A stretch of DNA of 63,989 bases, filler included, from Hausera hauseri (lineage: Eukaryota): NCBI GenBank assembly GCA_046269625.1. It is 11 parts of 11 records of this genome, joined end to end, with 100 filler letters (N's around TTAATTAATTAA, not from the genome) between each part and the next. Parts side by side here need not be neighbours in the genome. Positions count along the whole stretch, not along the records: positions 44,017 to 50,911 come from JBJURY010053996.1; 10 more parts are not named here. One strand, given 5' to 3'. The notes under the pieces are model-generated. The model had not been told where the DNA came from. It saw only the letters and a program-made list of their open reading frames with translations, and did not search any database. Below, one piece after another: positions 12,331-55,454 of the stretch. Each line of letters starts with the position of its first letter. Position 1 is the stretch's first letter. A program made the translations under genes and the position numbers.

Positions 12331-12499
12331 TTCCAACTGTATGCCATAGAGACAAGGGGAATCAAGTGACATCATCAGATTTTTTCGAAAATTCAAAGTT
12401 CGATATTCGGGCCAAAAAAATTCGAATTTCAAATATTTGACTCGATATTCTAGATCTCCATACTCGGTTTCCTATCTGTCCCGATCAATGTAATATCGA

Positions 12500-17050: not shown

Positions 17051-17054
17051 TGCC

Positions 17055-19400: not shown

Positions 19401-19416
19401 TGCGGTATTTTTTCTT

Positions 19417-20130
19417 TTATGCTGCCGCATCAACTGGCCGCTGTCTTTGGCTTTTTGATAGAGGCGGTGCGTCTGATGTGGCCATACCTGATGTGGTTGC
19501 GCCTGATGCTGCTGCGCATGATGCGGCTGCGCGTTTCAGTTCTCTAATATACTTTGCGGCTGCTGCACCAGATCCAGAAACATAATGCGAGGCATAATAC
19601 TGCGAAGTATCATACTGCGAAGCACATGCATCAAAATTGTATTTCTCATTAAAGATGGCCTTCTTTGACTTTGATGCGAAGTGACTTAAATGATGTCCAT
19701 GATCATTATAGAACTGTATGTAATCTGCGTCGCATACAGTCTCACATCCTGGGCATATATAAAAGAGGATCCTATTGAATTTGTATCCATAATAACTCCT
19801 CATGGCATTATGACTGTTTTGAGGGTTGTGTATTGCACATGTGTAATACACGTATGAACTGCACCTTTGATTTTGCTTAGGCATAGAAGTCATTATTGGC
19901 ATAGTGGGATTGAATATTTGTTTTTTCGACTTGGTGAAGGGAATCAGGTGTTGTTTATGAGCATTGTAAAAGTCTTCATATTTGGTCTGGCACACTACGT
20001 CAAATGTAGGGCATATATAATACGCAGCCCTGTTGTATAGATGGCTGAACTATTTCTGCATAACGTTGTAGTAATTTCCAGTCTCGTGCATTTGAGCCAA
20101 GCACTGTTTGTATAGATTGCACATGTAAAA
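19417..20130 (-). CDS. Unknown Polinton-associated ORF with a duplicated Cys/His module, upstream of PolB
   Basis: YYICPTFDVVCQTKYEDFYNAHKQHL and FYICPGCETVCDADYIQFYNDHGHHL repeat; ORF 19417..19995 plus an upstream extension past a stop. Confidence 0.45.
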
Positions 20131-21039
20131 ACCAGCCAATTATTTGAGGAGCACAAATAAAAATCTCATTATTCGTGGAAGTGATTCTGAAAATAATGAA
20201 ACATATAGCAATATCAACGCATACTGCTTCATTTATGGATTTTTTAAATTTTCGAACATTCTAGAACACTTTGTTTTACTGCATCAAATAAATTAAATGC
20301 ATTTGGGCGCAAAATAGGTCTTAATACATAGGGAATCGATTAAAGCCATTAGATTCTTCGAATAATGCATACTTGACCAAATATTATCGAATTTTTCAAT
20401 GTATTATCCATTTCGAGACACTTGTAAATACTTTGCACACCTAATTTTTGGTCTACAGCGGTTTTCGGACATGGAGCATCCAATGGTATTATTCGAATAT
20501 TCGAATTCTATCAAAAAGTCGGCTTTGTTATTTAAGTCTCTTTTCGAATATCTGACGTCATATTCGGATTTTCCATATATGGATTTGTATCCCTCTACGT
20601 TTTTAGATTTTTTGATTTTTGCTTCTATTCGAATAGAAAATAAATTATTAGTAAAGTTCGACTTGTATTCGAGTTTTTGAATATCTGATGTCATAATCGG
20701 ATACAGTACATGTTAGTTTCTATTTGTGTACGCTTTTATATTTTTTGATTTCCACTTGCTTGTGTGTTAAAATCAACTTTATAGGTTTTATTGGTAAAAA
20801 AGTTATTAATGATTAAAGCACACTTGCACATGTGCGACTCATCTGAAAAGTGCTATATAGATGCATTAAGACATGAGGAATCGACTGGCGCTCTCAGATT
20901 TCTCAAAAATATTATGGGTGTCAAGATAATCGATACTATTCGGTGAAAATGGATGTTTATTCGAGTTGTGCACTGAATTTCGGAAATCTGAGATGAAAGA
21001 CCCGGGTTCCAATGTGGCACTTCCTGTCTGTTCCCGCTT

Positions 21040-21410
21040 AAACATTTGTCGAATTTTTGACTCCTTGGGACCTAAAAAAAGTATGGGAAATCTGCGTCAG
21101 TTGCACTTTGGATCGACATTATTCGAAACTGACTCAATCGATTTAAATTTTAATTGCACATTCACATAGTACATCGTATTTCCAATCGATTGCACCCAGT
21201 GCCATGTGCTAATCATAAATATTGGCAATAGCGGAAAACCGATATTATTGATTTTTGCACACTTGCATATGTGCTGCATACCTGCGCTGTGCACCGATCG
21301 ATGTGCACTAATATGCACAATCGATTAACACTTTGTCCCGATCTATTTGGTCAATTGTGCTATGTGCACTGATCGATTTGTGAAATGTGCAAAAATGTGC
21401 TTAGTAAAGA
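21040..21410 (+). repeat. Palindrome-rich repeat (copy 3), upstream of PolB
   Basis: Colinear with 12500-12870. Confidence 0.7.
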
Positions 21411-21788
21411 AGACTTTGCTTGGCAAAGTCGGGGGATCGAAATCATGAATATGACTTGGTTTCTTGTCGCTCATAATTCAAATTGAAGTCTAAAGAGTTT
21501 TAAAAAAGTATTTGTTTTTTGTCCAATATTTAAACAAATTAAAAATAAATAATATTTTTGCTTATTATTTATTTTTGCTGCTCCATTACTTTCCCCTCTC
21601 CTTTATGATCATTGTTCACTCTTTTCAACCATTCCACTCTTCTACGAATCATTCTACCATCTTCCATGTTTTTCAACTCCCACTGATGNNNNNNNNNNNN
21701 NNNNNNNNNNNNNNNNNNNNNNNNNNNNNNNNTTAATTAATTAANNNNNNNNNNNNNNNNNNNNNNNNNNNNNNNNNNNNNNNNNNNN

Positions 21789-24120
21789 TCAGAACACAAT
21801 ATTTGTGCCCATGCCTACGTAGATGTTTTTTAGTTGTCGTCCTTTTGGTATTATATCCTTGTCAGCAAATTCTATAATCTGCTAGATAATCCTATCTCTT
21901 CTTTGCTCAGTTGAGATTTTAATCGCTTTATCCATTATTAGGGCGCGTTGGCGTTTTATTATTTCTTCAAGCTGACTTTTCTTCCTAACAGTAATTGCGC
22001 TTGTTTTGGTCTTTTACCTTGATAGTGTATCGGCATTTACATGTTTACTTCCTTGCTTATATTAGAATTCGATAGTATATCTAGAGATTTCTTCGATCCA
22101 TCTGTTAAGCCTGCATGTTGGATTATTTTCTCGTCCTTTCAGGGTAGTGACGGCTTTATGATCAGTAACAATTATGATTTTCTGCCAATACACAAACGTT
22201 AAAATGTCGGAGCGCTTCTTTCACTGCTAGAGTTTCTAATTCAGTAACAAAGTAATTTTTTTCGGCCTTCTTCAAGGAACGTCCTCCATAAGCAATTTGG
22301 TGTTCTAATTCTTCATCTTCTCTTTTCTGTGCTAATTTATGTCCAATACCTTCCTAACTGTCGTCTGTCTTGATTATAAAGGGTAAGTTAAAGTCTGGGT
22401 ATCGTAAAACTGGTTCGCTTGTTAATATCTTCTTCATCTCATCAAAAGCTTTTTGTTCGACGTCTGTCCATTTCCATTTAATTCCTTTTTTAAGTAGGCG
22501 GTATAGAGGTGCATTAATTTTTGAATTATCTGGAACATAGGTTGCGTAATATCCGCAAAGTCATAGCCAGTGTCTTAATTCTTTTTGGTTTTGCGGTTCC
22601 ATGCGGTTTGATATTTTATTAAATAATGGTTTGTCTGGTCTCGATCCTCCTTCTCCAACTATATGGCCAAGGTAGGATACTGCGTTTTGAGCCCATTTAC
22701 ATTTCTTTGGATTTAATTTCAATCCGGCTTGTTCCAGTCTCATTAATGTGTGTTCGATATTTTTTAAGTGTTCCTCTTCTGTCCTTGATGCTACCATTAC
22801 GTCGTCTGGGTACGCAAATGCATGATCCAGTCTCATTAGTATTTTGTTCATCATTCTTGTAAATATGTTTGGTCCGGTGGTAATACCGAACGGCATGACG
22901 TTAAATTCATAGATACCATCGTTTGTTTTGAATGCTGTCTTATAACGATTACATTTTCAATTTCCACTTGCCAATATCCGGATTGTAAATCCAGAGTGGT
23001 AAACCATTTGGCTCCTGAGAGTCGATCTAAAGCCTCCTTTACTGACGGTAATGGGAAGGAATCTTTTATCATAAGATTATTTAAGGCTCTGTAGTCAATA
23101 CAAAATCAATGTTTTGTGGTACCTTTTTTCTTAACCATGAGGATTGGTGAATACCAAGATCTACAGCTGGGCCTAATTGTATCGGCCTTAAGCATTCGTT
23201 GGACTTCCTTCGTTATTTCAGGCCTTAGTGAATGTGGTGGAGGGTACCATTTCGGCATCTTCTTATCCTCAAAATCTATTTCTTCATTTGAACCAGGCTT
23301 TTTTTAAGCGGAATGGTCAGTTTTAACGCTTTCGCTCTACCGATATCTTCTTCGTCCTTAGCGATAGTCGATTTATAACGGCATAATAATTCATAAAATC
23401 GACAATAAGACTCAGGTGAAAACTTAATTTCAACGTGAGGTAAAAATTCGGCATACTTGTAAGACTTTTCTTCACTAGTTATTTACGATACTCTATACGT
23501 GTCTCCTAAAGTAGTATAAGCATGGAGTTTAATGGGAGTCTGCGTATTATTAGCTATTCTAATTGGCACTCGACAGGAGTGTACTTTTGTTAATATATTG
23601 CTGAGTAATATATTTAGATCTAATGTATCCCTTGGTTCAAAATATACTGGTTGATCGTCATCTTGCTGTATCTGGACACAAATTATCATTTTTGTTCTCG
23701 GTGGGATGTCTTCGTCTACAGGTATCCATACCTCTTCGAATTTTCTATATTTAGCGTTTTTCACACCTTTATTCGGTCTGATTTCTATCATCGTCCCCGT
23801 TTGTAGGTCAATTGCTATATTTGTCAACCTTTTTAGTAGATCGCATCCTAGAACTATGTCATTGGTTAATTGCTCAATAACTGCACATTCGTGATGGAAA
23901 AATTGTCCAACTATTTGAACTTCTGGATTCCATTTAAACATTTGTTTTGACAATTGACCAAAAGCTCCTGTACTTCCTGGATCTTTTGTAGACGGTGGAT
24001 ATATTTGTCTTCTCAGTGTTTGAAGTATTGAATCATTTTTGATGTAAGACATCTCGGATCCTGTATCGATTAAGGCCTAAACTTCCCAATCTTCAATAAT
24101 GATTTTGGCAAAGGATCTTC
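21789..24120 (-). mobile_element. Ty3/gypsy pol of family A2: PR, dUTPase-like segment, RT, RNase H
   Basis: ALIDTGSEMSYI (about 24065), IVLGCDLL, CIDYRALN, LDLQSGYWQV, MPFG, AYPDD (YLDD in the sister copy at about 50850), RH ELETLA..TDHKA. Confidence 0.92.
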
Positions 24121-24499
24121 TTTTTATTACTGTTCCGAAACAATTTAATGTATCCTTTGAGCGTTTCTCCGCAGATATTTTATGTCCATTGATTCGGATT
24201 TTGGGGAGGATACTACATTCTCCGACAACTGTCTTAATTCTTCGTTTGGATATAACTCGTTGTTTTCTATGTGCAATTCTGCCGTTTCGTGTGTACTAAC
24301 TAATGGTTCTCGATTGTTGGTGTGTAGTTTTGTATTTTGGAAGGTTTTTAACCTTGGGTTGTTCCAAATTGTTGATATAGTTTCTATGTTCCAAGGTTCT
24401 CTCGGAGATTAAAACATCTTGAGACCATCTGTGAATTGTTGGTAACACATTTTCCATAGGATTCCATAACGTTTCGTTCCTTCATAAGGTTCTTGTACG

Positions 24500-25822
24500 T
24501 TAATTGTTCATTTATAAATTTCCGTCTGATATGAACTTATTGATCGTTTGTCGCAGTCTTCATAGACTGGAGCGGTAGGAGGCAGCATAGGCAATGGCAC
24601 TTTAATGACAGAGTACGTTTTATGTCTGTTTATTCCTGAAAGTGCTTCTCCTCCCTTAGGCTTGTCATCATCTGAGTTATTTCTATGCGTATTCGTTTTT
24701 GTAAATTTCCGCTTCCGCAAGAATATAGGCCTTCCTCTTCGTTTACGATTATAATAACCGACATGGCGTACTATGTCCAATTTCCATCTGTTTTCTTCGT
24801 ATGCCTTTAAGAATTTTTCAAAGGGCGTTATGATCACCGTCAGTATTTTACATGAAAATCCAGTCAATGTAAATATTTCGTACCCATTTATTACTGCTTG
24901 GATGACTGCTTTAATCATTTATATGAGGAAATATATTGCTAAAAATCCGGATGCAGTTTGTCCGAAAATTAAAAATCTTCCCCAAATTTTGTAGAGTATC
25001 TCATTTAGCCTGATATATTGTATCATCTACTACAGAAGCCATGGCTCGGTTTGACTGGTGTGTTCGTTGTCGCGGAAAAGCGAGGAATTGCCTAAAGGCT
25101 TCGATTTCCTTGGACCTGTATATGCCTTTCGACGAGGTGTCTTGAAATTTATCGTCCGTAATTCCTTTTGCAAGGTTTGTTCCTGTTAATTTACTTGGGG
25201 CAGAAGTGATATCTCCATTTGGCAAATTAACCCAGTCTGTTTACTGCGTTTAAACATGGGTTTTCCTAAGCTTGCCTTACAATCTTTAAGGATGGTTGCT
25301 TGGGTCGCGTTATCTAGTAACACTCTCGTCAATGGTGTAGCTAACCTAGGAGTATTCTGATAAATAACAGAGAGTTCCTGAATGCAACGTTTTTCTTCCA
25401 CGTTGATGGGTACGTCTCTCTTTTCGCATTTATAGGTTAGCAATACTTCGCCTGTAACCCGACCGAAAATTCCCTCTCTCATGGGAATTATTGGAGGAGC
25501 CAATTCTGGGTTGGCATATATAAGAGCCGATTTAGTTCTCATAATTTCAGTATCTAATCTGCAGTCATTCATTATCATTTTGTAATACAATTCAGTTATT
25601 TCGACTTGCCCTTTGTAATAGAAGTATTAGTCTCTGTTCTTCAGGTAATCTTCAATTTGGATATTCTGTGTTTCTAGTTTGTAAGTTTTCGCATTTATTT
25701 CCGTTTCTGCAACGAAAATGCCTCATAGTTGGCAGCGAACATCACTACATCACAACAAGAGATCATTTCTTTTTAAATAAATTTCAGTCCGTGTTGATCC
25801 GAGTTCAATATAGTGGATGTAG
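24500..25822 (-). pseudogene. Chuvirus-like glycoprotein C-terminal half, TM and tail, upstream of PR (family A2)
   Basis: NDCRLD..YANPE..GIFGRVTGEVLLTYKC..RCIQELSV..ATPLTRVL, GIYRSKEIEAFRQFLAFP, IWGRFLIFGQTASGFLAIYF..INGYEIFTLTGFS; homologous to 1800-2800. Confidence 0.82.
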
Positions 25823-39335: not shown

Positions 39336-39713
39336 ATGTCTCACTTGACGACACAACTCATTAGCTTATACCACTCATTCGACAGTCTTCGGAACCACCT
39401 GTACAATCTCGATCGACCTTTGGACAATGCTCGATATCTGCCTCCGGAAGAGCTACTCCTACTTGCTGAGCAGAATTGGAGGGCACGAAAACCTTATCTA
39501 CACCATATGAAGCAGGTTGCTGGTGATATGGAATTTTTATTCAGTAAGATTTTTCGCTCATTTGAAAAAATGACGACGTTGGACGATAATAATACTCGTC
39601 AAGTACGTCAATTTATGAGCGATTTTGTCAAACGTGGTAGTAGTCAGACGGATTACATTCCTACGTGGCAGTCAGCAAATATTTTGCTTGAAGCAATATT
39701 GCAATACGATTAA
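39336..39713 (+). CDS. Hypothetical 125-aa protein, probably Polinton accessory
   Basis: Open ORF with upstream TATAAATA (about 39293) and downstream AATAAA (about 39824), next to TIR-like sequence; no family recognised. Confidence 0.4.
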   Translation: MSHLTTQLISLYHSFDSLRNHLYNLDRPLDNARYLPPEELLLLAEQNWRARKPYLHHMKQVAGDMEFLFSKIFRSFEKMTTLDDNNTRQVRQFMSDFVKRGSSQTDYIPTWQSANILLEAILQYD

Positions 39714-39879
39714 TTCCGATGGTCTCGATCATTCTTCTTCTTCGGAATTGGCTGTTCCCTGTGGTTTGTGTAATCCGAATTGATTCGAACGATTTCGTAC
39801 CAGTTGCAATACTAGTACAAAAGAATAAAAGTTTGATGTATACTTTGTTTTCTCGTTACTCAAAACGATCATTGTAGCG

Positions 39880-40130
39880 AGGTAGGTGGGAAAATGCGTT
39901 GTCCAAAAACTAGGTTAAACAAAAATGTTTGTTATAATCAGATAGGTGGGGAAATAGTGTTTTCCGGAACTGGGTCACAGAAAAAAAATTTTTTAAACGC
40001 TTGTTATAGTCAGAATGTGGTTTTCCGGAACTAGGTCAGTCCAAAAATTTTTCCGACTCAACTCATCTTGCTGAGTTCAAATATGCAGGTGTCCAGAACT
40101 AGGTCAGTCCTACTTTTTTTCCGACCGAAC
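39880..40130 (+). repeat. Short degenerate repeats (TCCGGAACTAGGTCA; GATAGGTGGGGAAA) related to the TIR motif
   Basis: Four copies of the ..AACTAGGTCA-type core; GATAGGTGGGGAAA recurs at about 41307. Confidence 0.6.
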
Positions 40131-40539
40131 GAAATGCCACAATAACAAAAATAAAAAATTAAATAAAATAAACAATATAAATTAAATAAAACAAAAATAA
40201 TAAATAAAATAAATTATTTTAAAATAAAATTATTAATCAAAGACCAAAACTTACGTGGTCCATTCTTCGGCTATAACTAATTCATAGAAATGACTGTAAG
40301 CTAAGTGTCTCGATATTATACATATGGTAGTGTGTCTCTTGGTAATACTTTACTGACAAACACTGTTGATTTTGCAAATATTGAATGTACATTAAAGAAC
40401 AAAATCTAACCAGATGTCCATTATTTCGAGAATGCCGTTTACACTACTAGTAATAGACCAAATCGTGAGAAAAAGTATGACATTTCCATTACTGAGCTTT
40501 TTGACGTCCTACTCCATACACACACAATGTTCCACATCA

Positions 40540-41385
40540 CAACTCATTATTTCATGTTGCATGCATGCATGCATGCATTCAGGCAGGCACATTTCTCGTC
40601 TCGTGCTCACATTTGCGTAACACACACATTTTTTCACGTCACACCTCACTACTTCATATTGTAGACACCTTTCCCGTACCTGTCGTGCTCAAGGTTTGTG
40701 ACGACGAAAATTTTGTGTGACGAGACAAATTTTGGACTATTCGAAATTTTGTTGTGACGATTCGCATTTCGTGACGATGATGATGATGATGGTGATTTCG
40801 ATTTTGACTCTTTCGTTTTCGTTTTTACATCAACGAACAAAAGTATGCGTTTTTCATCAACTTACAATCGTCTGATCGTGAGGCGCTTATAATATGAAAT
40901 ACTCAACTCCTTTTGGGCCTTCTTCTGAAAAAATTTCCACCACCATCTAACTTGCCCAAGGGGGATTTTCACCCGTTTGAAAATTTCCCATTGATTTTTC
41001 CCTATGTTCCCATGGTCAAAAAAAGTTGCAATTGTGCGCATTCGATTTCCCCGGCATTGATTTGACATTTTCAACCGAACACTGTTTCGCCAGTAACACG
41101 TGCCTTGTTTCTTGAAACACATTTCCTGTTTTGATTCTTCTGCTTTTGGCGGCGTCCCGTAATATTTTTGAGTTTTGCTGCGTTATAAATTTTTTCTCGC
41201 CTCGTAGAGCTCTACCGATTTGAGTCGCTGACATATGCGACATATGACATAGGCATCCAACCTGGGGGTCTTCCGACGATGAGACATAAAATGCTCAGAA
41301 TTGCGAGATAGGTGGGGAAAACTTTGTCCAAGGTCGAGCTGAACACTTTTGGAAAATGGGGTTGAAAGCTCACTTCTACCTACTA
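40540..41385 (-). repeat. Probable Polinton terminal inverted repeat (end of left element)
   Basis: Diverged reverse complement of 41494-42330; ends CACTTCTACCTACTA. Confidence 0.7.
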
Positions 41386-41493
41386 ATAGTTTATTTGCGT
41401 TTCAACTATCAAACAACCGAGACAACCATATGTCAGTTTACTGTGCATCCTTGTGGTGCCATAGTACTGCTCATCCATCAACGTCATGCACTG

Positions 41494-42330
41494 TAGTAGG
41501 TAGAAGTGTCCTATCCACTGCACTTCCCAAAAAGTGCTCAGATCAACCTGGGTCCCAGCTTTCCCCACTTATCTCACAATTCTGAGCATTTCATGCTTTG
41601 TGGTCGGAGACCTCCCTATGATTGAAAACACATGTCATGAGTTGCACATGTTACCTACAGAAATCGGTAGAGCTCGATGAGACAAGAAAAGTTTTATAGT
41701 GCGGCGAGAGTTAAAAATTTACAGGGTGGTGCTAAAAGCAGAAGAATCAAAACAGGAAATGTTTTATGAGAAAGGAGACACGAGTTACGAATTACGCAAT
41801 TTTCGGTGAAAATGTCAAACCGATGTTGAATGCGCACAATTTTAACTCGGTCTGACCATGGGAACATGGGGAAAAATTGAGGGGAAATTTTCAAACTGAG
41901 AAAAATCCCACTTGGGCAAGTCAACTGGTGGTGGAAATTCTTTCATAAGAAAGTCCAAAAGGAGTTTAGCATTCCATATTATAAGTGCCTCACAATCAGA
42001 CGATTGCAAGTTTGTGAAAAACGCGTTGGTTTGGTGGTAAAAATCCAAACCGAAATTACCATCATCATCATCATCATCAAAATCACAAAATGAGAATCGT
42101 AAAAATTTCGAAAGTCGCAAATTTTTGTCACACAAAATCTACTTTATCATCATTATCATCATGAGGACATGTACGACGAGTTGACACGTGCAATGGTGAG
42201 GCGTGACGTGAAAGAAGTATGCGTTACGCGACAGACTGAAAATGTGCCTACATGCATGTATGAATGCAATCAAAACGAAATAGTGAGTTGTGACGTGTGT
42301 GTGTGTGTAGCAAAGGGACGTCGAAGTGAT
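41494..42330 (+). repeat. Probable Polinton terminal inverted repeat (start of right element)
   Basis: Begins TAGTAGGTAGAAGTG (AGT-repeat terminus typical of Polintons), directly followed by protease and capsid genes. Confidence 0.7.
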
Positions 42331-42349
42331 GGCAATAATAACGCATGTG

Positions 42350-42770
42350 TAACAAAATACTGTATTTCTCTCTAATTAAACACAAAGTACAATCATTGTT
42401 CATGCAAGTATCTGTAACGTTAGCCACAGTAAGCAATAATGTCCACAAAATAAGGTCAGTGGATGTTGATAATGAAATCGATTGTATTCAACACGATATG
42501 ACGATGGTGATTGTCGTTCAATTTGAGAAACTAACGATGACGGGTAGTAAAATCCGAGCGGATCGAATACTCTGACGACGTTCATCGGATGGTGAACGTA
42601 CACAGCAATCCAATATTCGCCCGGCAACGATGAAGTGTGTGTATTGACAATAAAGCCACCGCCGCCAGTGTGTCGTAAATCACATGGCACATTATCCAGT
42701 GGAAACAAGCCATGAAATTTCGCACCCAAGAGCAGTTTTCCATAGTGATTGAGCTCGTTGGAGCTAAATG
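42350..42770 (-). pseudogene. Polinton adenain-like cysteine protease
   Basis: FIVNTHTSSLPGEYWIAV..FDPLG..YQ..CGHYC; the catalytic His of GxHW reads Tyr here. Confidence 0.88.
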
Positions 42771-42850
42771 TGAATTAAGTATAATAGTAATAGTAGTAAT
42801 AAATTACTTCATAATACAAAGAAGAAAAAGTTAGGCACAGCGGATTTTAT

Positions 42851-43916
42851 TTATGCAATGACGGTTCCGTTTTTCGTTATTTCAACCTCGGCATCAAATA
42901 CACCGTAAATGTACATCACGGTCGACTGCTCCAACGCTTTAGCAAAGTGAACTTCCAGTCGTAGGTTTCCCTGCTGAGGTAGTTGAGTATGATCAACGTC
43001 ATAATCCGGAGCCAGGACAAAGGTGAAGAATTGATAGGTGGATTTGAACAGGTCCATCGGTATGCCATTGTTAATGTTTTTGTTGAGAAAACCCATGTTG
43101 CGCACAATAGATTGCATATATGTGCAAACGTAATTATTATACTCAAAGTCTTGTTTGTACGTCTGAAAGAAATCCTCATTCCGGCCCAAACTGATATAAT
43201 TCACATTGCTTTGGGTAAACATTTCCGAATCGGTCGTATAACTGCCCGTTTGTTGAACAGTCGCTTGAAATGTAACGAGCACAAATTTCGGCAATTGCAT
43301 GTCGTCAAACACTGCATCTTCGTAAAACGTAGTTGAATCTTTCGGTATAGTGTAAAAGACGAGTTCTGTGCGTTGCATCGGGTAAGAGGCATTTTGCGTT
43401 TCCAAGCCCAATCGATGTCCCATGAGCATAGATGGTCCTACCTTTACACGACGTACGTATAATTGTGCCTCGGTAATTTTCAGTATGGGTTTAAGCTGTG
43501 CAATGGCGGTTTCCAAACAAAAGACATTGTAGCTGTGTTTGAGCCAAATCATGGCTTTAACACTGGGCAGTAGATATTTCGGCTGATCGAAAAAGTCAAA
43601 GTACAGCAGTCCACACATTGTAAGTGGTTTTGATTCTGCCACCCATGCCTAACGGTTTGCCGCTGTGGCATTGTATCCGATGGTTTTCGTCAAATGAGTC
43701 GTTTTCGTGTCTGCGCTGTAATTTACAGCCGTTTCAATGAGTGCTTTGATACTGTAGAGACTGGTGTTGCCTTCGATTTTGACGCTGTTCAGAGTCCGTG
43801 AAGCCTCCTGGAACAGTGTGAGGAAAAAGTAATTGGCCAGTGTGACAGTGTCTGTTGCAGCGAGAACCGTTGACGCGTCCTTTTTAACAATGACTTTTAC
43901 ATAGAGTAGCGTATCG
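42851..43916 (-). pseudogene. Polinton major capsid protein, 5'-truncated
   Basis: NYFFLTLF, DFFDQPKYLLP, AQLYVRRVKV, LPKFVLV, GNLRLEVHFAKAL. Confidence 0.88.
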
Positions 43917-44016: not shown

Positions 44017-44588
44017 CTCTTAACTATATAATTAAAGAAATAATTTTGAAACCTAATGACGTCAAATCACCTTTAAGGGGAGAAGGAAACTACATGAGAA
44101 TAGTTTTCACGATACAAATATATTAAAAATAATACAATTACCAATACGTCAAGCACAATATCGAATATAGCACCATTTCAATGTCTCTGAGTTCAAGACT
44201 TCAACGTCTAATTTTACTGCAATTTTTCTTGGTACTCTGAGTTGCTCAACAACAGTCACTGATAACTTCTGAACTTTCTGATTTTCCTTAGAGTTTATGT
44301 ACCCCTATGTCTTCTAATTACTTTTCTTATTATTTCATTTTATTCTATTGGTACAATATTTTATTTTCTTTTTCTTGATTAACACTGTTTTATCGTCGCT
44401 GATTAATAATCACATTATTTACAAATCTACAATCATTCTGTATAAATTGATTATTTCTTTTTTTCAAATCCAATTATTTCGATAATACAGTCATATTTAC
44501 AATAGCTGCATAAATAATAACTAGATAATAATTAGATGTCAGGTAGATGCACTAGAGCATATTTTATAGAAACAGCTGTATTACAACA
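44017..44588 (-). repeat. 3' LTR of family A2 third copy, cut by the gap
   Basis: PPT AGGGAGGAGAAA then TGTTGTAA; shares the AAGGTGATTTGACGTCATTAGG block with about 32188. Confidence 0.75.
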
Positions 44589-47133
44589 TTTCTCCTCCCT
44601 GAACGGCATCCTCGGATAAGCCCATTGCATCAGGAGAGGTGCCGTGGGAACGGGGCCTTCGTAACATTTCCATACGTCTTCTTAGACTGGGTCCTGAGCT
44701 GGTGCTTGGTTGATCTATTCTGGGATTTGTTTCGAGTTCATAATTATGGTATGGCTTAATCCTAACTATTCTGTTATAGCTACCGTTTGAGTAATATTTC
44801 AAGTCAGCCGCCTCGGCTCTGCAGATAGGACAAGTGGTTTTTCCATTATTCAACGTCCATTTATTTAAGCAGTCACTGCAATATTTGTGGCTCAATTGGG
44901 GTTATTCAGCACCACGTATCCCTGTTTTAGATTTGTCTCACATACGGGGCATTTGTTCTCCTCTTTCTCTCACTTTTCGTCGTCCAAGTCGACTCTTAGC
45001 ATAATTTCTATGGGTTCTATTACCAACCCGTTTTTGTCTTGGTATAAATAAGCTGAAATTCTCTTTTGTTTCGGGTTTATGGAACTCTTTTTGGGATCGC
45101 ATCCCACAGGTATTAGAGTCCAATCGCTGATAGTGTCTCGATCTAAATCGGAAACTTCACCAGTCGATCGGTATTTTTGATATTGCTTATTTAATACCAG
45201 TTTCATTGATTTATCCACAGGAAGTAAGATTTTACCATTTCGTCTGGACTGAAATATCGGGGCAACGTATTTTCCGATCTTCGGATTTTCCCAGACATAA
45301 GTGTTCTCGTAAACTTGTCTGGCAGGCATTAATTTGACAAAAAACATTGCCTCTTTAATCTTTTGTTTGCTATAATATTCTGTGGCTATTAGCATCCTAG
45401 GATAATCTGCCGTAGTGGCGTAGTGAACATCTTCCGTGGAGTTCTACTTCCGTAGGACGTTTATTTCTGTTATTTGTTCTTTTGGTTTTCTTGTGGACTT
45501 TTCAATGCGGGACTGCATGTCTGATTTCGATGGTTCTTCTGCTGGTATTCTTGGTTTATCTGGTCTTGATGATTTTGAATCCTTTCCGTCCGGTATGTGT
45601 CCTTCTTTTGGTCCCTTTTTCCCTTCTTTACTTTTCTTCTTGAATAAATAATCGAAAAAGTAGGTTTTCCTTTTAGTTGTTTTTCTCATTTCGACCTGTA
45701 ATTCTATCTCTTTCTTGTATGTATTTCCGAGAAACTTCTGGTATCTTAAATAGATTATTATCGGTTGTAACGCCATAACTTGTACTGGGCTTCCCATCTG
45801 TACTTAGTTTATCCCACATTTTTCTTGTTTTAGATCCTTGAGTAGTTATTTGGTAATTCCATTTCGGAGTAATCTCGACATTTCTTGGTGGTGAGTAAGG
45901 ACTGAAGTGCTTTCTATATCGTGTACTGATTCCTTTAAGTTTGGGAAAATTTCGCAGGTTCTGTCCGGGATTATTGGGAATCCATTCATGTTCCCACTTT
46001 AATCCAGCATTTATATCCCTTAGATATTAGGATCGTTGGCTAGCAGTCAACAGTCGGCTTATTTTTATATTTCCTCCAGTCATGGCCTCTACCATTAACT
46101 GTAATCGGCCTTCCACGGTTGGTGGTAGATGACCCTTCTTCTCTTTGACCTTAATTTCCATTTGTCCCATGACAGTCGGGCGGGTTTCTATTTCTCTTAG
46201 TCCAGCTATATGTGTTACCGGTATATCTAATTTTTTATCATCCTCTCTATTTGATACCCTACTAAGACGTGTCCGTAGAAGCATTGTGCTACTTCCTGTT
46301 GCACTAACTTGGAATCCTTTTCATGATTTAATTGTTCCCTTTTAATCCCGGTAACTTCTGCATAAGATTCTAGTACTTTCTTTCTCGGGTTAATGATTTT
46401 CGAATAGATTTCGGCCCCGTTTTCTTGTCGGATGAATATTTCGATTGGAATATAATTTCCTTCTTCTCCTTCTCCATAGTTTATTGCAGCAATCCTGAGA
46501 TTCCTGTCATCAGTTACAAATCTAAACGAATGTTGATGTGCATCCTGTTCTTCTCCAGTGGGTCTTTGCCTAAACTCTAATGGCGGCAATGAGACGGGTA
46601 TTGTCTCTTTTTCAGTTATTTCGACCATCATCTTTACCGGTAAGGCTGCCACACGAAATTCTAGCTCGTAATTATGGATATTCCTACTGCCAAATACAAG
46701 CGTGCTAAAACGACTTTGCCTTCCTTGGAAAGAGCCCCATTTTTGATCTTTCAGCCGATAATAAATTTTTCCGTCAGCCAAATGTACATATATCTTCTGT
46801 TCCTTGTTTGCTGGTACTGGGCCATCTGTTGCAAGGGGTATGCTCTGGCGTCCTTATCCTCTCCCCAGGCATATAAATGTATATCGCTCTGGCTTCTTTG
46901 GTCGTTCCTTTCAGACCGTTTGGTATCTCACCAACTTTTCCGTATTAAATGAAGTTCTTTCCTTGCAATTCCGTATTGATTTGTCTATAGATAGCTTTTG
47001 AATTGGGGATCCGTACAGTCACATATTGCTGTAAAAATTTGTCGATACTAAGTCGACTCGTAGTTTTCTCGGTGTCGATTATAAGTCGGTTCGCATTTTC
47101 CTCGTCGTCGATTCTAAGTCGGCTCGGGTTCAT
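44581..47133 (-). pseudogene. Accessory region of family A2: exonuclease-like domain, unknown domain, RING
   Basis: Colinear with 29257-31743; CPVC..HKYCSDC..CPICR; YSKIINP..VTGIKREQL..VLVGY. Confidence 0.75.
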
Positions 47134-47249
47134 CTGGGTCTGATTACTTACTAATCTAAAAAAGAAAATATAAAGGTTAATCTTTAAACAAAAGATGGTT
47201 TTAAACCAAAACCAATTCTTTGTTTGATGACAGAATAAGCTGATCTGTA

Positions 47250-48670
47250 ATTGTATGGTTATTTTATCATACGGATCTACAGGGTTTTCCAATTCCCTTA
47301 ATTCCCATTCTGAATTTTTATGGCGCTTAGAATAACAGTTTTTGGTAACTAATCAAAAAATCGCAATTAATATAATGAGAACAAACGTTGACAGTATAGA
47401 GATGGATACGATCGGCAGCGTAGTTAATCCCATTGGTGCTTGTGTGGTGACTAGCCTTGTGATTTCCTCGTCTATATTCTCATATGTATGCGACTCGGCA
47501 CGAATTTCGCCTAGGGTATGCATTGTGATGGTTTGATATTGTTTATTTGTTGCATGTACTTGTACTATGTATTCGGTTTGTGGTTTTAATAAATCACACT
47601 CTGTTTGATAAGTACCTTTAAACAGCGTCACGATTTGATTATTATATGTTCGACATACTTATGTATATATTGTAGCTTTGTTTCTCGTCCACAAGGAACA
47701 CAATTTTAGACCGATATGACGAATATTTAATAGGGATGCTCCCTAATTCTCTTTTAGTCACACTGCTTTATGTAGAGGTTGTCGCAATGGCACCAACTCA
47801 AGTGATTGACTTTTTAGTGGTCAATTCTACTGTGATTTTGCATATTCTACTTTCCGGATAATAAGTTCGTAATTGTACGCTTGGTTTATTAGGTCGTACT
47901 TCATATAAATCAAATCTTATTTTAAACTCTTGGTTCGCGGGTAGTTTGCAACAGGGGTGTTGCAAACCTGCACGAATAGAACAATATTCTATTTTAGGAG
48001 TTCGTCCACTTGCTGCTTCGAATGTGATGCTGATTTCTCGGCTGACAGTTAACTCTGTTTTGGTATCTACTTGGATGCATTGTTTTTTCTTGTTTATAGA
48101 GAGTCTCCGAATATTTTCTTCTAATAATCTCACATTCGGGTTGGTAGATCGTAGCAATTCATTGGGTTTTACTCCATGATGTCTGTTACATGCAGAAATA
48201 AGTAATTGAAATTGTGGTTTTACTTCAATATAAACTTCGGTTGAGTCTGGTAAGTATTGGCGATAGGTAAGGTTATAAGTACGCCAAAAATCTATGTCGC
48301 AACACTGCGCATTTTCTCCAGGCTCAAAATCACAATTGACCAAACCAGTTTGAAATCTTCCGAAATCGTGGTGCGGTTTCCAAGTCTTAAATCCAAAACA
48401 TACGGCGTTTGGTGAGTAATAATGAACCGTCATTGATTGTAATAGTTTAGCATCTGCTTGTCTTTGGATATCTTCAATTGTTGGTTTCTTTTCCGTTTTA
48501 ATCGATTCCGATTTTGGTCCGCTCTTCCGAATTCCGTATATATTTCTTAACGTAGACTCATCGTGCCACCATTGGGCTTGTGTTTTCGAAATATAAGAAG
48601 CAATTAGGGACAAATCTAGAACTATCTGAACGTACGAGATCGGTCTGGCAATTATTGAGGAAATTTTTAC
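47250..48670 (-). pseudogene. FN3-like type I membrane protein, N-terminal part in frame with integrase
   Basis: ORF 47798..49237 runs from the IN core through GPY into the signal-like segment and Cys-rich ectodomain; FN3-like motif and TM are in ORF 47353..47631. Confidence 0.65.
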
Positions 48671-48679
48671 CTCGCGTTG

Positions 48680-50911
48680 GCGTAAATTATAACGCTTGTT
48701 TGGCCGTATTTCTGTCTTGACAACTCTTTGTACTGACACAACCTCTTCATTTCCATTTTTGTTAATATACACTGTGGTTGGCGTGACTTTGGTCACTTCG
48801 TATGGTCCTCTGCCGGTGCGAGTTAATTTTAATGAGGTACCTTTCTTGGCTACTGGGTAATGTACATAAACCCAATTTCCTTGTTCTATATCATGCGGGT
48901 TTGCTTTCTTATCATATTGCTTTTTAAATTGCTCTTGATATTCTTGGGATAATTCTTTAACGATCTCCCAACACTTTTGCAATCGCGTTTGTAATACTTC
49001 TGCGAAATTCTGCTCTAAATCTTCGAGATTGACTGTGTATGGCGTCATTCCTAAGTCCGTGGGCAACACGGCTTCGCGCCCATACATCATAAAGTAAGGC
49101 GTAAATCCTGTTGCTGGATGTTGTGTGGTATTATTTGCAAATTGAGTTCCTTCTAAAAATTCATCCCAATCTTTTTGGTACTTAGTCACTACTGTTGACA
49201 GTATACGTATGACGTTAGCATTCATTCGTTCGACCATTCCATTACATTGAGGATGATACGCGGTAGTTGTTAGTCGTTCAATTTCGAATATCTTAGTGAT
49301 TTTCTCGAATAGTTCGCTGGTGAAATTTCTTCCTCGATATGTGAGTATCTGGTCTGGAGCCCGTATCGACAGATAATCCTTCTTACTACGGCTTCTTCTA
49401 AAGTTTCTGCCTTTTGATCAATTAATGTTATCAACTCGACGAAATGAGTTAGTCGATCAATACACGTCAAAATATATTTATTGTTCTTGTGAATAGTAGG
49501 AAGAGGTCCTACAAAGTCCATCGATATGGCTTGCATGGGCCTGTCGGGTACATCAATGGGTTTTAGTTCGGCCATGTAATTTTTCGTCTTCTTTTGTTTA
49601 GTTGCACATACTTCACAATCATTCACTCAATTTGTCACATCAATGTAGATGCTAGGCCAGAAATATTTATTCATTATTCTTTGTAACGTGTTCTTCCAGG
49701 ACATGTGTCCTGACAAGTATGAATCGTGTTCTAACATCAGTACTTCAGTTCGTAAATCTTTTGGAATAACTATCAGTTTCTTTCCTTTACGTTCGTATTA
49801 TAAAATATCTTCATTGCTCTTGTCACTTAGGATGCAGTATTTATGCCCGTGTCTGTGTAAATGTTTCTTTAACTGTCGTCCTCTTGGTATGACATTTTTC
49901 TTAGCAAATTCTATAATCTGCTGGATGACTTTATCCTTCCTTTGTTCTGTTGAAATTTTGATGGCCTTATCTATCGTTAAAGCTCGTTAGCGGTCTATTA
50001 TTTCCTCAAGTTGACTTTTCTTCATTACAGTGATTGCGCTCGCTTTAGTCTGTAATCTCGACAGGTGCATCTGCGTCTACATGTTTGTTCCCTGGCTTAT
50101 ACTAAAATTCAATATTGTATCTTGATATTTCTTCGATCCATCTGTTGAGTCTGCATGTCAGGTTATTTGCTCGGCCTTTTAATGTCGTAATGGCTTTGTG
50201 GTCAGTGACAATTATAATTTTCTGACCGTATACGTAAACGTTGAAATTACGCAGTGCTTCTTTTACGGCTAGAGTTTCCAGTTCGGTAACAGAATAGTTT
50301 TTCTCGGCATTCTTCAAGGAACGTTCTCCATAAGCAATTGGGTGTTCTAATTCTTCATTTTCTCTTTTCTGCGCTAATTCATAACCAATGCCTTCCTTAC
50401 TGGCGTCTGTCTTGATTATAAAAGGTAAGTTAAAATCTGGATATCGCAAAACGGGTTCGCTTCTTAATATCTTCTTCATCTTATCAAAAGCTTTCTGTTC
50501 GACGTCTGTCCATTTCAATTTAATCCCTTTTTTAAGCAGACGATATAGAAGTGCATTAATTTTTGAATTATCTGGCACAGGTTGCATAATATCCGCAGAG
50601 TCTTAGCCAGTGTCTTAACTCTTTCTGGTTTTGTGGTTACATACAATCCGATATTTTCTTCAATAACGATTTATCTGGTTTCGATCCTCCTTCCCCAACT
50701 ATATGACCTAGGTAGGATACGGCGTTTGGGCCCATTTGCATTTCTTCGGATTTAACTTCAATCCGGCTTGATCTAGTCTCATCAGCGTATGTTGGATATT
50801 TTTTAAGTGTTCCTCTTCTGTCCTCGATTCTATCATCACATCGTCTAAGTACGCAAAAGCATGATCCAATCCCATTAACATTTTGTTCATCATTCTTGTA
50901 AATATGGCTGG
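48680..50911 (-). mobile_element. Ty3/gypsy RT(end)-RH-IN of family A2, third copy
   Basis: AYLDD, TDASKEG, CEVC, MDFVGPLP, NGMVERMN, GPY. Confidence 0.93.
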
Positions 50912-51039
50912 NNNNNNNNNNNNNNNNNNNNNNNNNNNNNNNNNNNNNNNNNNNNTTAATTAATTAANNNNNNNNNNNNNNNNNNNNNNNNNNNNNNNNN
51001 NNNNNNNNNNNAAAAACAGAATACGTTTACACAAAAATT

Positions 51040-51390
51040 GTTTTTAATATAAGCCACAATAAGCAATAATGTCCACACAATACTGTTAGTGGATGCTGAT
51101 AATGAAGTCAATTGTATTCAACACGATATGATGACTGCCGTTCAATTTCAGAAACTAACTATGACATATAGTAAAATCCGAGCGGATCGAATACCTTTAC
51201 GATGTTGGTCGTAGGATAGACGTACAAAGCAATCCTATGTTCGTCAGGTAACGATGATGTGTGTGTATTGACAATGAAGCCGCAGGTTTGTCGTAAGTCA
51301 CGCAGTACAGGGTCCAGTGGAAACACACAGCGAAATTATGCGCCCATGAGCAGTTTTTCGTAGCGATTGAGCTAGGTGGAGCGAAATTTA
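51040..51390 (-). pseudogene. Polinton adenain-like protease, degenerate
   Basis: GFIVNTHTSSLPDEH and CGHYC; homologous to 42400-42770. Confidence 0.8.
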
Positions 51391-51515
51391 AAACGCAGGT
51401 TTAAAGCATAACAATATTCATAATCAATTACTTTATGTTATTGCGTAGTAGTAGTAGTAGTAGTAGTTGTTGTTTTTGTTGTAGAGTGATTCATCATAAT
51501 TATTTATTTACTCAC

Positions 51516-52748
51516 TTATACAATGACGGTTTCGTTTTTCGCAATTTCAGCCTCGGCATCAAATACACAGTAAATGTACATCATGGTAGATTGCTCCAAC
51601 GCTTTGACAAAGTGAATCTCCAGTCGCAGATTTTCCTGCTGAGGTAGTTGAGTCTGTTCAACGTCATAGTCCGGAGCCAGGACAAATGTGAAGAATGTAT
51701 AGGTGGATTTGAAAAAATCCATCGATATGCTATTTTTGATGTTTTTGTTCAGCAAACCCATGTTGCGCACAATAAATTGCATATATGTGCAAACAATATC
51801 ATTAGAATCAAAGTCATATTTGTACGTCTCAAAGAAATCCGCATTGCGACCCAAACTGATGTAATTTACATTGATATGGGTAAATGTTTCCGAATCGGTC
51901 GTATAACTGCCCGTTTGTTGAACAGTCGTTTGAAATGTCACGAACACAAATTTCGGCAACTGCATGTCGTCAAACAGTGCATCTTTGTGAAACGTAGTTA
52001 AACCTTTCGGTATGGTGTAAAAGACGAATTCAGTGTGTTGTATCGGGCAACAGGCATTTTGCGTTTCCAAGCCCAATCGATGTCCCATGAGCACAGATAA
52101 TTCTGCTTTTACACGACGTACGTACAATCGTGCCTTGCTAATTTTCAGTATGGGTTTGAGATTTGCAACGGCGGTTTTCAAGCAAAAGACATTGTCGCTT
52201 CGTTTGAGCCGAATCATGGCTTTAATACCGGGTAGTAGGTATTTCGGCTGATCGAAAAAGTCAGAGTACAACGGTCCACACATTGTCAGCGCTTTTGATT
52301 TTGCCACCCATGCCTGATGATTTGCCGCTGTGGTATTGTATCCGATGGTTTTCGTCAAATGAGTAGTTTTCGTGTCTGTGCTGTAAATCAGAGCCGTTTC
52401 AACGAGTGCTTTATACTGTATAGACTGGTGTTACCTTCGATTTTGACGCTGCTTAGAGTCAGTAAAGCCTCCTGGAACAGTGTGAGGATAAAGTAATTGA
52501 CGGGAGTAACAGTGTCTGTTGCAGCGAGAATGGTTGACGCGTCCTTTTTAACAAGGATTTTTACATAGAGTAAAGTATCGTTCAAATCCAGCTATTCGTT
52601 GTCCGAAGCCATAATGCTGAACTGAATGTCAATGTTATCGTCCATTAAAACCGAATCAACTGGGTAGATTACTTTAAATGCCGCATTGTCAATAACAACT
52701 TGTGGCGCGCTTTTGTCAAATATGCACAATTCCGATTTCGCAGATACA
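51516..52748 (-). pseudogene. Polinton major capsid protein
   Basis: KSELCIF..PQVVI, LDLNDTLLYV, DFFDQPKYLLPG, LYVRRVK, NLRLEIHF; close homolog of 42851-43916. Confidence 0.9.
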
Positions 52749-52751
52749 ATA

Positions 52752-53120
52752 TCAATCAAAAATCGTACGACGACGACGTTTGTTTATAGCTGATGAACTC
52801 AATGAGGCTCTACCTTTTCGTCTTCTCATAATCAAGCCACCAGCAGTAAATTGTTCTTTGACTGATTCAACGATTCCGGGTGAAGCGCTTTTTATTTCCG
52901 ACAAGGCGTGTTCATTCAGTGATGGTAAAATCGATTTATTTTCATATAGTACGTCCTGTGCTGCTATTGCTGCCACGGCGCCGATACGCTTCAACAAAGA
53001 AAATGCTAAACGTGCCAACGTACGCAATTATCCAGAGCCATACTGTTTACGAACGAAATACGGTAGTTTCCCGCCCTGCTGCGGTTTACTGTAAATGGAA
53101 ACGATTTCAGAATTAATCAT
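52752..53120 (-). pseudogene. Polinton basic core-like protein
   Basis: QQGG..QYGSG then RTLARLAFSLLK..AQDVL..GG..RRRKGR..RRRRTIFD, just upstream of the major capsid. Confidence 0.6.
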
Positions 53121-53139
53121 GTTGTTGTTGTTGTTGTTG

Positions 53140-54161
53140 TTGTTGGATTCGACGGAAATGAAGAGTTAGACTGGTTGTGGTACCGTACGGAAATTCAATA
53201 AGGTAGCCCGCGTCACATCGGATATTCACTTCAACATTGTTTATAGATGTAGATGCCACATGTAGTTACATTGGATTATCGAGCTTGACAGTGACATTGT
53301 CGCCAGCAATATACTTACTGCTTTCCGGATAAATTGTACGCAGTAGTGGTACACGTACTCCACTAACCAAAATCGGTTTGGTGACATTCACGTAAATGTA
53401 CATTTGACGTAGTCCCGTTTTCAGTTTGGGTTTGAGTGTTTCAACATTTGCCAATACCATAGCCAATGCTTTGTCCAATGAAATGTCAAAAATATCCTTA
53501 GCCAGTTCAACTTTAAGTCCCATTTGTATCTGACTCGAAAACTTTAAATATCGCCTTGTACTTTTGATTTGAAGAAAAGTGCTGACAGAGATGTGCTACA
53601 GATTCGCAATAGACATTGTCGCTAATCGATACGTATGATGTTGACACCGTTTCTTTTGTATAGGTAAACTTTACCGTTTTCTGGTAATATACGGGACTTA
53701 ATTTAGGAGCAACTATATTTTTACTTTTGGTATTTTTTACTTTTTTACTCTATATTTTTGAATCAAAATTTTTGCTCAATCTCAGAGGACTTAGAGGTAA
53801 CAGTGAATTCAAAATCTGCGATACAATGTAAGTTTTCTAAAATAAAAACACCGATCTTGCCGAATATACTGTAATTTGCTTCAGTCATGCAAAATCCCGA
53901 TTCTACAACTGTTATTTTATTGTTAGTAAGTGTCAGAAGACAAGAATGTGTTTTGGTTTTGGTAACAGTCTTGTTGTACATTATTTTTATACTACCTTTC
54001 AGGGTCACCGGTGCGTAGGGAAAGTTAAATTCCGTCAGTGCAATCTCCCATTGTCCAGATAAATCCAAAGGACTATTCCAATCTACAAGGTATTCACTGG
54101 CTAAATTGTTTGGACGAGTCGTCGGACAACTGTTGCTTGGCAACATCACGTAAATACTCAT
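53140..54161 (-). pseudogene. Polinton minor capsid (penton-like) protein
   Basis: MSIYVMLPSNS..NLASEY..PLDLSGQWEIALTE at the N-terminus; MYIYVNVTKPILVSG..PLLR..NPM..IEF..LTLHFRR at the C-terminus. Confidence 0.82.
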
Positions 54162-54199
54162 GATTTCAATGATAATAATGATAGTGATGAGGCAGTTTG

Positions 54200-54952
54200 T
54201 TTATTATCGACATTGACGACGTCGAAAATGTAACGTCAGTGTGTCGTTGCCCCGAACAGAAATTTAATGGGTTCCCAAAATTCATCAAGCATATACATGG
54301 AAATACTGTGCACAATATTGTAAGACAATGATAAGTACATGGGGCTGAGAATATTAACGCGAACAGTTTCATTTGATGTTTTGTATGTGTCAGAATCCAG
54401 TTCGATAGAAGCCAGTAGTTGTTTACGTTTTCCACTAACGAGTACGGATTCGGTTAAGTCCGTTAAAATGTTGATTCGGTGAAATGCTTCATAGAGTTAT
54501 GGCTTGTATTTGGCAACAATAGATCGTCCAACAATGTTTTGATAGAATACGAGTTTTGAAAAACCAAGATTCGGAGCCAAAAATTCATCGAAGGCAAAAT
54601 ATGTAAACTTATCATATAGTATAATCGAAATATGACCATCTGCATTCATTTCACATGTCTTTAAGGCTAATGTAGCCGTTTTCTTTACGTATTCACACAA
54701 TTCCCATTCCGTTTCCATTAGTAAACCGTGTTGTATAATATATGAGCGGAAGACCGATTCCGACTTAGTCTACTTTACTATAATATCGGATTGCGCATCG
54801 GATGAAAGGTCAAAATTTTTACCAATCGTAACATGTCCACTTAGCCGTAGACGTTTTGAGTGTACATTCACTGACTGAAAACCCAATGCCTGAGCATTAG
54901 CTATAGAATTAAACTGCATTTCAATGGGATTTCGATGCACTAGTTTCATACG
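54200..54952 (-). pseudogene. Second, divergent penton-like paralog, 5'-truncated
   Basis: LAPNLGF, then TDLTESVLVSGKRKQLL..SPMYLSL..SISMYMLDE..PIKF..LTLHFRR, parallel to the neighbouring penton C-terminus. Confidence 0.65.
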
Positions 54953-55052: not shown

Positions 55053-55454
55053 TTCTCGTAACGAAACTGGAGTTAATCGAGGTAAATATGAATCTGGTTG
55101 GGTTGTCCAACAATACATGAACGAATACAATCAAGTTTCGTTTAGTGTTTTGATTATCCTATCGACTATAAGATTATATAGATGTTCAATTCACTAGGCC
55201 CCATGGACGGTCGTTTGAATGGCCAGGCCGTTAAAGACCATTTTCTTAAATCGAAACTACCGATTTCAATATTGGGTCGCATTTGGAAACTGTCAGATAT
55301 TGACGATGACGGCCATTTGGATCGGGATGAGTTTGCGTTAGCGTCTTATCTGATTAAAATAAAATTGGATGGTGATGAGATACCGAATACATTACCAAAT
55401 CATTTAATTCCTCCGTCCAAATCAGCACTAGTTGCTCGTGGAGATCTGACATAA
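55053..55454 (+). CDS. Host EHD/RME-1/Past1-family protein, last two exons (EH domain)
   Basis: Exon GWVVQQYMNEYNQ, 47-nt GT-AG intron 55135-55181, then KSKLPISILGRIWKLSDIDDDGHLDRDEFALA..LPNHLIPPSK. Confidence 0.9.

Follow-up and report, generated by a model that had tools for sequence, protein, structure and literature searches.

In a 63,989-nucleotide stretch of DNA from Hausera hauseri (GenBank assembly GCA_046269625.1; hereafter, the window), an animal with numerous decayed mobile elements, we identified an accessory gene downstream of the integrase gene in an env-bearing family of gypsy-type retroelements. This gene is real, conserved and apparently undescribed, and, judging from an intact relative in which the complete product can be read, it encodes a single type I membrane protein, with three domains that are predicted to adopt a fibronectin type III (FN3)-like fold. 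The function that we favor, at a probability of roughly 40%, is that this single-pass protein is the attachment partner of a gB/chuvirus-like fusogen of the same family. The evidence comes from two dead copies of the element, one homologue, a structural model of middling quality and contigs that are not linked to each other.

The window consists of 11 contigs, 4-9 kb each, that are joined by 10 artificial spacers, all of the identical form N44-TTAATTAATTAA-N44 (the first one at 4001-4100). Because the contigs are separate and the spacers artificial, neighborhood across a spacer is unsafe as evidence, and the reading of adjacency in the window as adjacency in the genome was rejected. Copy A of the element occupies the minus strand of contig 44017-50911 (JBJURY010053996.1), and copy B, the plus strand of contig 25923-32622, where the element itself (25923-31752) is 86.6% identical to copy A across 5.9 kb. 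Both copies encode reverse transcriptase (RT), RNase H and integrase, in that order, as is characteristic of Ty3/gypsy pol genes, and both contain a polypurine tract followed by a long terminal repeat (LTR) that begins with TG; the LTRs of the two copies are mostly unalignable, with only the first 32 bases and a later stretch of 72 bases in common. Both copies are decayed. The contig of copy A stops at 50911, immediately before a spacer (50912), so that protease, env and gag are not on it.

A membrane-protein gene in frame with the integrase

In copy A, an open frame on the minus strand, 49417-47798, spans 539 codons from stop to stop and 479 codons from the Met at 49237. It runs through the integrase core, the GPY module and the terminal KRYNLR sequence into a hydrophobic, signal-like stretch that ends with T-Q-A and then into a Cys-rich region, so that translation and hydropathy bear out the 479-residue open reading frame (ORF) reported in the preliminary description of this DNA. 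Past the end of the integrase, the frame remains open for 294 codons, compared to the maximum of 161 in 2000 base shuffles. The preliminary description also placed an FN3-like motif and a transmembrane helix within this ORF, which proved incorrect: the ORF ends at 47798, whereas both features lie beyond it, separated from it by stops at 47800 and ~47770 and by a frameshift near 47657; a stop near 47355 also interrupts the helix itself. A further frameshift, near 49361, is found in the integrase of copy A according to the indel listing. The second copy that had been noted at 27690-29136 was recovered as the copy B gene, with breaks in that copy near 27446, 27516, 28022 and 28572, of which the last two fall within the membrane-protein gene. 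When all six frames of the window are considered, there are exactly two instances of the LxPxTxYxVxVxA motif, one at 47589 (-) and the other at 28801 (+). The family is high-copy, with 16,995 contigs aligned along the whole gene and all 30 bins covered.

The residues encoded by 48670-47801 (the N-terminal 290) were searched against 1.84 billion representative sequences, yielding two matches. One of these, P0002, was dropped as a repetitive, low-complexity match. The other, P0001 (E 5.7e-45), is a natural relative of 479 amino acids encoded on one 4939-base contig, which is 35% identical to the front half of copy A over 275 columns and 37% identical to the back half over 122 columns. Given that this intact protein aligns to both halves, the front and back pieces were once a single protein. 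P0001 contains a signal stretch, with its own Met just ahead, a helix and a Tyr-containing tail; the pattern of 10 Cys residues from the ectodomain to the stalk is largely shared with the copies, and the final residue, after a Tyr-x-x-Ile motif, falls at the same place in P0001 as in copy B. The preliminary description proposed that a host receptor or adhesion domain had been captured; no host donor was found among the 1.84 billion representatives with the 290-residue query, P0001 being the sole real match. A search for longer relatives containing the copy A ectodomain gave none among 1518 candidates, and in a search near P0001, this protein was alone among 3335; locus scans were negative for viral_contigs (0/8 and 0/2 stretches) and for metagenome_contigs (0/130 and 0/77 stretches). 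An alignment search limited to proteins of 30-54 amino acids found nothing, which is uninformative at such sizes.

Table 1. Positions of the principal features of copies A and B and of a sister copy in the window
Feature	Position	Strand	Basis and remarks
Copy A, RT end and RNase H, broken	50105..50911	-	Pfam RT_RNaseH_2 E 1.5e-34; translation
Copy A, integrase (H2C2, core, GPY module, KRYNLR end)	48685..49750	-	Pfam rve E 5.1e-6; translation
Copy A, signal-peptide-like stretch	48575..48655	-	Hydropathy and alignment to the P0001 N-terminus; in frame with the integrase
Copy A, predicted domain 1, FN3-like, four Cys (C...C...CC)	48190..48433	-	P0001 model strands 76-137
Copy A, predicted domain 2, FN3-like, same four Cys	47825..48106	-	P0001 model residues 191-282; block pLDDT 60-76
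Copy A, Thr-rich linker and predicted domain 3 (motif at 47589)	47510..47797	-	Broken by stop and frameshift
Copy A, helix (contains a stop), juxtamembrane Cys and basic residues, tail with terminal Tyr-x-x-Ile	47254..47403	-	
Copy A, downstream accessory gene(s), broken	44584..47130	-	DEDDh-like stretch 46230-46811 (weak); C-terminal RING 44584-44901
Copy A, polypurine tract (44600-44589) and probable 3' LTR (from TG at 44588)	44017..44600	-	
Copy B, membrane-protein gene	27710..29136	+	In the integrase frame; helix 28987-29043; stop 29134-29136
Sister copy, chuvirus/gB-like fusion protein, protease, RT, RNase H, integrase start	21789..25822	-	

The predicted FN3-like fold

P0001 was folded with five pieces from the window as alignment rows. 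In the resulting model, three beta-sandwiches (residues 76-137, 191-282 and 328-398) have predicted local distance difference test (pLDDT) values mostly between 55 and 76 within the blocks, separated by low-confidence, Thr-rich linkers and followed by a helix at 432-465. A single-sequence model of the copy A ectodomain reached a pLDDT of 31 and was discarded before the fold search. Foldseek comparison of the P0001 model, a check suggested in the preliminary description, gave FN3 arrays as the best matches: the top PDB hits were tandem FN3 chains (fibronectin 10-12, E 1.1e-8; sDscam; gp130), with 223 matches at E<=0.001, and FN3-containing phage and algal-virus proteins were among the named matches in the viral library. 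In VIA comparisons, where Z values of 7-8 are common, the best score was Z 8.8, with fibronectin 4-7; domain 3 (residues 328-398) matched single FN3 domains with Z 7.3-7.7 (root-mean-square deviation 2.7-2.9 over 75-81 residues) and domain 2 matched the cytokine-receptor chain 4nn5_C with Z 7.6 (4.2 over 95 residues), while two non-FN3 Ig-like sandwiches also scored Z 8.0-8.2. The language-model neighbors were all FN3 clusters, at 0.80, which is a lead only.

The Leu-x-Pro-x-Thr-x-Tyr corner preceding strand F is a hallmark of FN3 domains. It is present in domain 3 of both copies and P0001, and domain 2 retains the Leu and the Tyr/Phe. The C...C...CC pattern is common to domains 1 and 2, which are similar to each other in an hhalign comparison (E 7e-4); no significant similarity was detected by the same method between domain 3 and domains 1 and 2 (E 0.16 and 0.33). 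The WSXWS motif, typical of type I cytokine receptors, is absent from P0001 and both copies, and neither the Pfam scans nor the fold matches listed included any class I, II or III fusogen family.

Several observations weigh against the FN3 assignment. The model is weak overall, with a mean pLDDT of 51, a predicted template modeling score of 0.27 and 230 of the 479 residues below 50; the Pfam fn3 profile stays below the gathering threshold for domain 3 of copy B (13.8 bits, E 0.072, cut-off 25) and does not match P0001; and no FN3 chain emerged from sequence searches of the PDB. Taken together with the fold comparisons, the model points to a likely FN3-like fold, with no specific receptor family singled out. 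The type I FN3-like protein of the preliminary description is supported with respect to topology and fold, but is predicted to comprise three such domains rather than one.

Divergence between the copies and the probable layout of the family

The pol genes of copies A and B differ with a ratio of nonsynonymous to synonymous divergence (dN/dS) of 0.07-0.22 and dS of 0.40-0.77. For the membrane-protein gene, dN/dS is 0.93 in the ectodomain and 1.19 from domain 3 to the tail, with dS of only 0.06-0.10, which equals the dN found everywhere else in the element. Formally, these ratios are those of neutral evolution, which the preliminary description had named as evidence against its reading; they are, however, uninformative because dS here is as low as the decay background, and we rejected the values near 1 as a proof of neutrality given that synonymous divergence itself collapses over the gene. 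We read the membrane-gene dN/dS as a measure of decay after insertion, not of the history of the gene. Of the fourfold degenerate sites of the membrane-protein gene, 9 of 137 differ between the copies; the corresponding counts are 51 of 153 for pol (p 7e-9) and, for the downstream gene, 23 of 79 (p 1.5e-5). Synonymous divergence falls abruptly at the end of the integrase, and this drop persists when CpG sites are removed (3/113 vs 35/121). Across the membrane-protein gene, the copies are 6-8% different, each with its own indels.

Most simply, this pattern would mean that a recent version of a ~1.8-kb block has come, via recombination, to be common to two diverged sublineages. The low synonymous divergence could also reflect RNA constraint or an assembly chimera, given that the contigs derive from short pieces of a repeat family and that a whole-element comparison is possible for two copies only. 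We consider this unlikely: no long antisense frame covers the membrane-protein gene, and the 6-8% difference, together with the private indels, implies that A and B are not one collapsed sequence. Furthermore, variation at third positions is present in other copies of run X1: of the 33 variable places listed for the signal and linker region, 16 are at third positions, a mild excess (p 0.05), and 5 at second positions, many of the third-position variants being at intermediate shares; at the integrase end, 6 of the 6 listed are at third positions. This variation disfavors frozen synonymous sites and mildly favors purifying selection; run X1, in which 0.34 of the words are present, is possibly related to the source and is not independent support.

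The preliminary description referred to a chuvirus-like fusogen alongside the membrane-protein gene. We detected such a fusogen in a sister copy on another contig but on the contig of neither A nor B. Matches to PF24664 (Monjiviricetes fusion) are found on two other contigs, 1-4000 (E 4e-26) and 21789-25822 (E 1.1e-13, at 25189-25626), in both cases upstream of the protease. The sister copy on the second of these contigs also matches RVT_1 (E 3.5e-23) and gag-asp_proteas (E 0.0035), and its contig ends within the integrase, short of any membrane-protein gene. Its identity with A and B is 84-88% across the RT and RNase H (for RNase H, 87% with A and 84% with B), and the fourfold-site differences, 17/32 between the sister and A, 13/31 between the sister and B, and 11/32 between A and B, are all of one order, which makes the env-bearing copy a close sister of A and B. 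Therefore, on the strength of this copy, the family very probably also encodes a chuvirus/gB-like fusogen, and the family order is probably gag, env, protease, RT, RNase H, integrase, membrane-protein gene, pseudo-exonuclease-RING gene and LTR. The element at 1-4000 (-) is a more distant one with env before the protease, 27-46% identical to the sister copy in the aligned pieces; its fusion protein, the helix of the latter and the protease are all within one open frame, 901-2385.

The pseudo-exonuclease-RING gene, located at 29260-31760 (+) in copy B, shows dN/dS of 0.29-0.38 between the copies. Its Pfam matches, RNase_T (E 0.017) and zf-RING_2 (E 3.5e-5), are under or near the cut-offs, and no clear catalytic motif was found in the DEDDh-like stretch; SUMO matches for this downstream region (E 0.025 and weaker) were taken as chance. 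At the start of the gene in copy A, 47040-47126, there is a 33-base tandem repeat in 2.6 copies, with one unit fewer in copy B.

Further features were noted elsewhere in the window. Contigs 51012-54952 and 38759-43916 (-) are 82% identical over 1.5 kb, and their frames resemble a major capsid gene of the Polinton/adintovirus type and, after it, a protease of the adenain type, a likeness that neither Pfam nor PDB supports; a long imperfect inverted repeat spans 40518-42306. The broken frames at 17466-21688 (-) resemble a protein-primed DNA polymerase, with an Endonuclease_7 match (E 5.5e-5) at 17908-18228 and related pieces at 12469-12869 and 17050-17351. Two copies of a different gypsy family, 77% identical, are located at 9536-11772 and 33537-38456 (-), with no gene evident past the integrase. 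A remnant of a piggyBac-type transposase (PF13843) is present at 15357-16014 (+), and an EH-domain exon of the host (PF12763, E 3.4e-19), at 55182-55451 (+).

Possible functions, expression and relation to known systems

The choice of an attachment partner for the fusogen follows from the predicted tandem FN3 domains on Thr-rich stalks, the sorting-type tail, the presumed location in one polyprotein with env and the apparent cassette-like exchange. Under this reading, the protein would be translated as the tail of the Pol polyprotein, its internal signal sequence would open the endoplasmic reticulum channel, and signal peptidase would cut after T-Q-A; the ectodomain would then fold and form disulfides in the lumen, with the helix anchoring the protein. 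At env, this polyprotein would already have passed through the membrane, so that the two glycoproteins would arise side by side in a single membrane. Precedents for an env in frame with pol are Burro (PMC6431247) and Atlas virus (PMC9094657), the latter with its glycoproteins at the polyprotein end. The Tyr-x-x-Ile tail and the juxtamembrane Cys might sort the protein to the budding site, and the FN3 arm on its Thr-rich stalks might bind a ligand on the host surface or matrix and hold the particle, or the donor cell, to the target cell while the fusogen fires. Sublineages would swap the gene as one unit, which is how a module that faces the host would be expected to behave. The complete scheme, that is, a two-glycoprotein entry machine in which a class III fusogen before the protease and an unrelated, cell-derived three-FN3 attachment protein after the integrase are both cut from one membrane-threading polyprotein, the attachment gene being swapped as a tropism cassette, appears rather unlikely as a whole.

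Several considerations count against the attachment function. The class III fusogens of chuviruses and rhabdoviruses are not known to need a partner. No single contig shows the full family order or the fusogen together with the membrane-protein gene, and, since modules are exchanged, A and B may be without env. The dN/dS between A and B does not indicate purifying selection on the membrane-protein gene, and the third-position excess in run X1 does not go far beyond expectation. Finally, P0001 has a Met of its own as the start, so that not every member of the family is fused to Pol, and the fusion may be accidental.

The last point bears on an alternative mode of expression, whereby the start codon of the same protein would be provided by a spliced mRNA (or, in the case of a flatworm host, by a spliced-leader trans-spliced one), with the shared frame being incidental. 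We place this at somewhat less than even odds; it is compatible with every function considered here. Apart from the Met of P0001, it agrees with the lack of an in-frame Met at the start of the signal-like stretch in A and B, where AG dinucleotides follow pyrimidine runs just upstream, with the presence of AUG within flatworm leaders (PMC9851317) and with the typical expression of the ORF3s of LTR elements via spliced messages (PMC5408684), as far as the available parts of these sources go. A separate ORF, however, would tolerate stops and indels at the integrase-to-signal junction, whereas the frame there is open in both copies and no indels are listed among the 544 contigs of run X1 aligned on 48420-48740; furthermore, the best-looking acceptor leaves the leader AUG out of frame. 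Directly after the integrase end, at 48670-48680 (-), both copies keep a splice-donor-like GAG/GTAAAA sequence, which could let pol transcripts skip the membrane-protein gene.

With respect to function, the protein might be a modulator of the cell surface instead of a virion component, acting as a receptor mimic or decoy to sequester a host ligand, to weaken antiviral signaling or to prevent re-infection of the cell that expresses it, as part of a counter-defense cassette with the pseudo-exonuclease-RING gene. The fold neighbors include the ectodomains of gp130, IL-12R, IL-20R, IFNAR2, CD45 and ROS1, the short tail keeps an endocytosis-type Tyr motif at 35% identity, the RING gene lies downstream, and block exchange suits host conflict equally well. 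Given that the protein and its copies lack WSXWS, that the FN3 matches point to no particular receptor class and that the search of 1.84 billion representatives found no host donor, we regard this possibility as on balance somewhat unlikely. Copies A and B might also belong to an env-less sublineage, with the membrane protein as the only surface protein, serving cell-to-cell contact without a fusogen: both contigs stop short of the region upstream of the RT, and the env-bearing sister is somewhat further from A and B than these are from each other. The distances are nevertheless of one order, consistent with a close sister, and env likewise precedes the protease in the more distant element at 1-4000, which makes the env-less alternative improbable. 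A functionless host retrocopy carried as a passenger would fit the dN/dS of ~1 between A and B but is very improbable, considering the precise in-frame position, the complete anatomy from signal to tail, the retention of the Cys residues, the helix and the tail motif in an intact relative at 35-37% identity, and the coverage of the entire gene in a high-copy family.

In the open-access literature (Repbase and subscription papers lie outside this scope), we found no such gene, nor an attachment protein beside the fusion protein, for elements of this kind; the comparisons that follow refer to the available portions of the sources cited. Errantiviruses with the GAG-ENV-POL order and an HSV/gB-type ENV are described in Platyhelminthes, Bryozoa and Nematoda (Chary and Hayashi, PMC13524379). 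The family analyzed here resembles them in the Ty3/gypsy pol order, the sister copy having a class III chuvirus-like env before the protease, and the Cys spacing of the env at 1-4000 is, by eye and without computation, similar to that in the Schmidtea C1a rows of that paper. No second membrane gene after the integrase is reported there, and its main text contains 0 mentions of fibronectin, exonuclease, RING or “transmembrane protein”. The giant gypsy-like planarian elements Burro/GYPSM1 (PMC6431247) have env in frame between gag and pol and are similar in encoding an accessory RING and other host-modulating domains, but they are 25-30 kb long and carry MATH, BIR, BCL2, ankyrin and other domains within ORF1; the corresponding review text does not mention fibronectin (0 mentions). 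The ORF3s of the bdelloid Vesta/Juno elements (PMC5408684) likewise occupy the env position without being fusogens, and small transmembrane ORFs as well as DEDD exonucleases are among them; they differ in their size of 210-230 amino acids, in the absence of FN3 from the portion available (0 mentions) and in replacing env instead of accompanying it. In Atlas virus, a nematode belpaovirus (PMC9094657), the glycoproteins terminate one Gag-Pol-Env polyprotein, and a GN-like receptor-binding protein accompanies a GC-like fusogen; this is, however, a BEL/Pao element with a phlebovirus-derived pair encoded together, whereas in the present family, all of pol would lie between the putative FN3-like partner and the class III fusogen. 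Cellular FN3-array receptors (fibronectin 10-12, gp130 D4-D6, sDscam FNIII1-3, NCAM, CD45) share with the retroelement protein, according to the model, tandem FN3 sandwiches, a single helix and a short tail, but identity is 7-18%, with no match at the sequence level; the retroelement protein has the C...C...CC pattern in domains 1 and 2 and no Ig, kinase or phosphatase domain, in addition to lacking WSXWS.

The route by which retrotransposons with an env gene enter germ or stem cells in animals other than Drosophila is an open question, and the gB-type fusogens have no known receptor or partner. If the attachment reading is correct, a dedicated FN3 surface protein would be the missing targeting step; otherwise, it would represent a new retroelement-borne receptor mimic. 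The apparent exchange of the gene as a block suggests that selection acts where the element meets its host, and the intact, natural P0001 makes a ligand screen possible. Even if the gene is a mere accessory ORF, it would still add a new type to the ORF3 catalogue.

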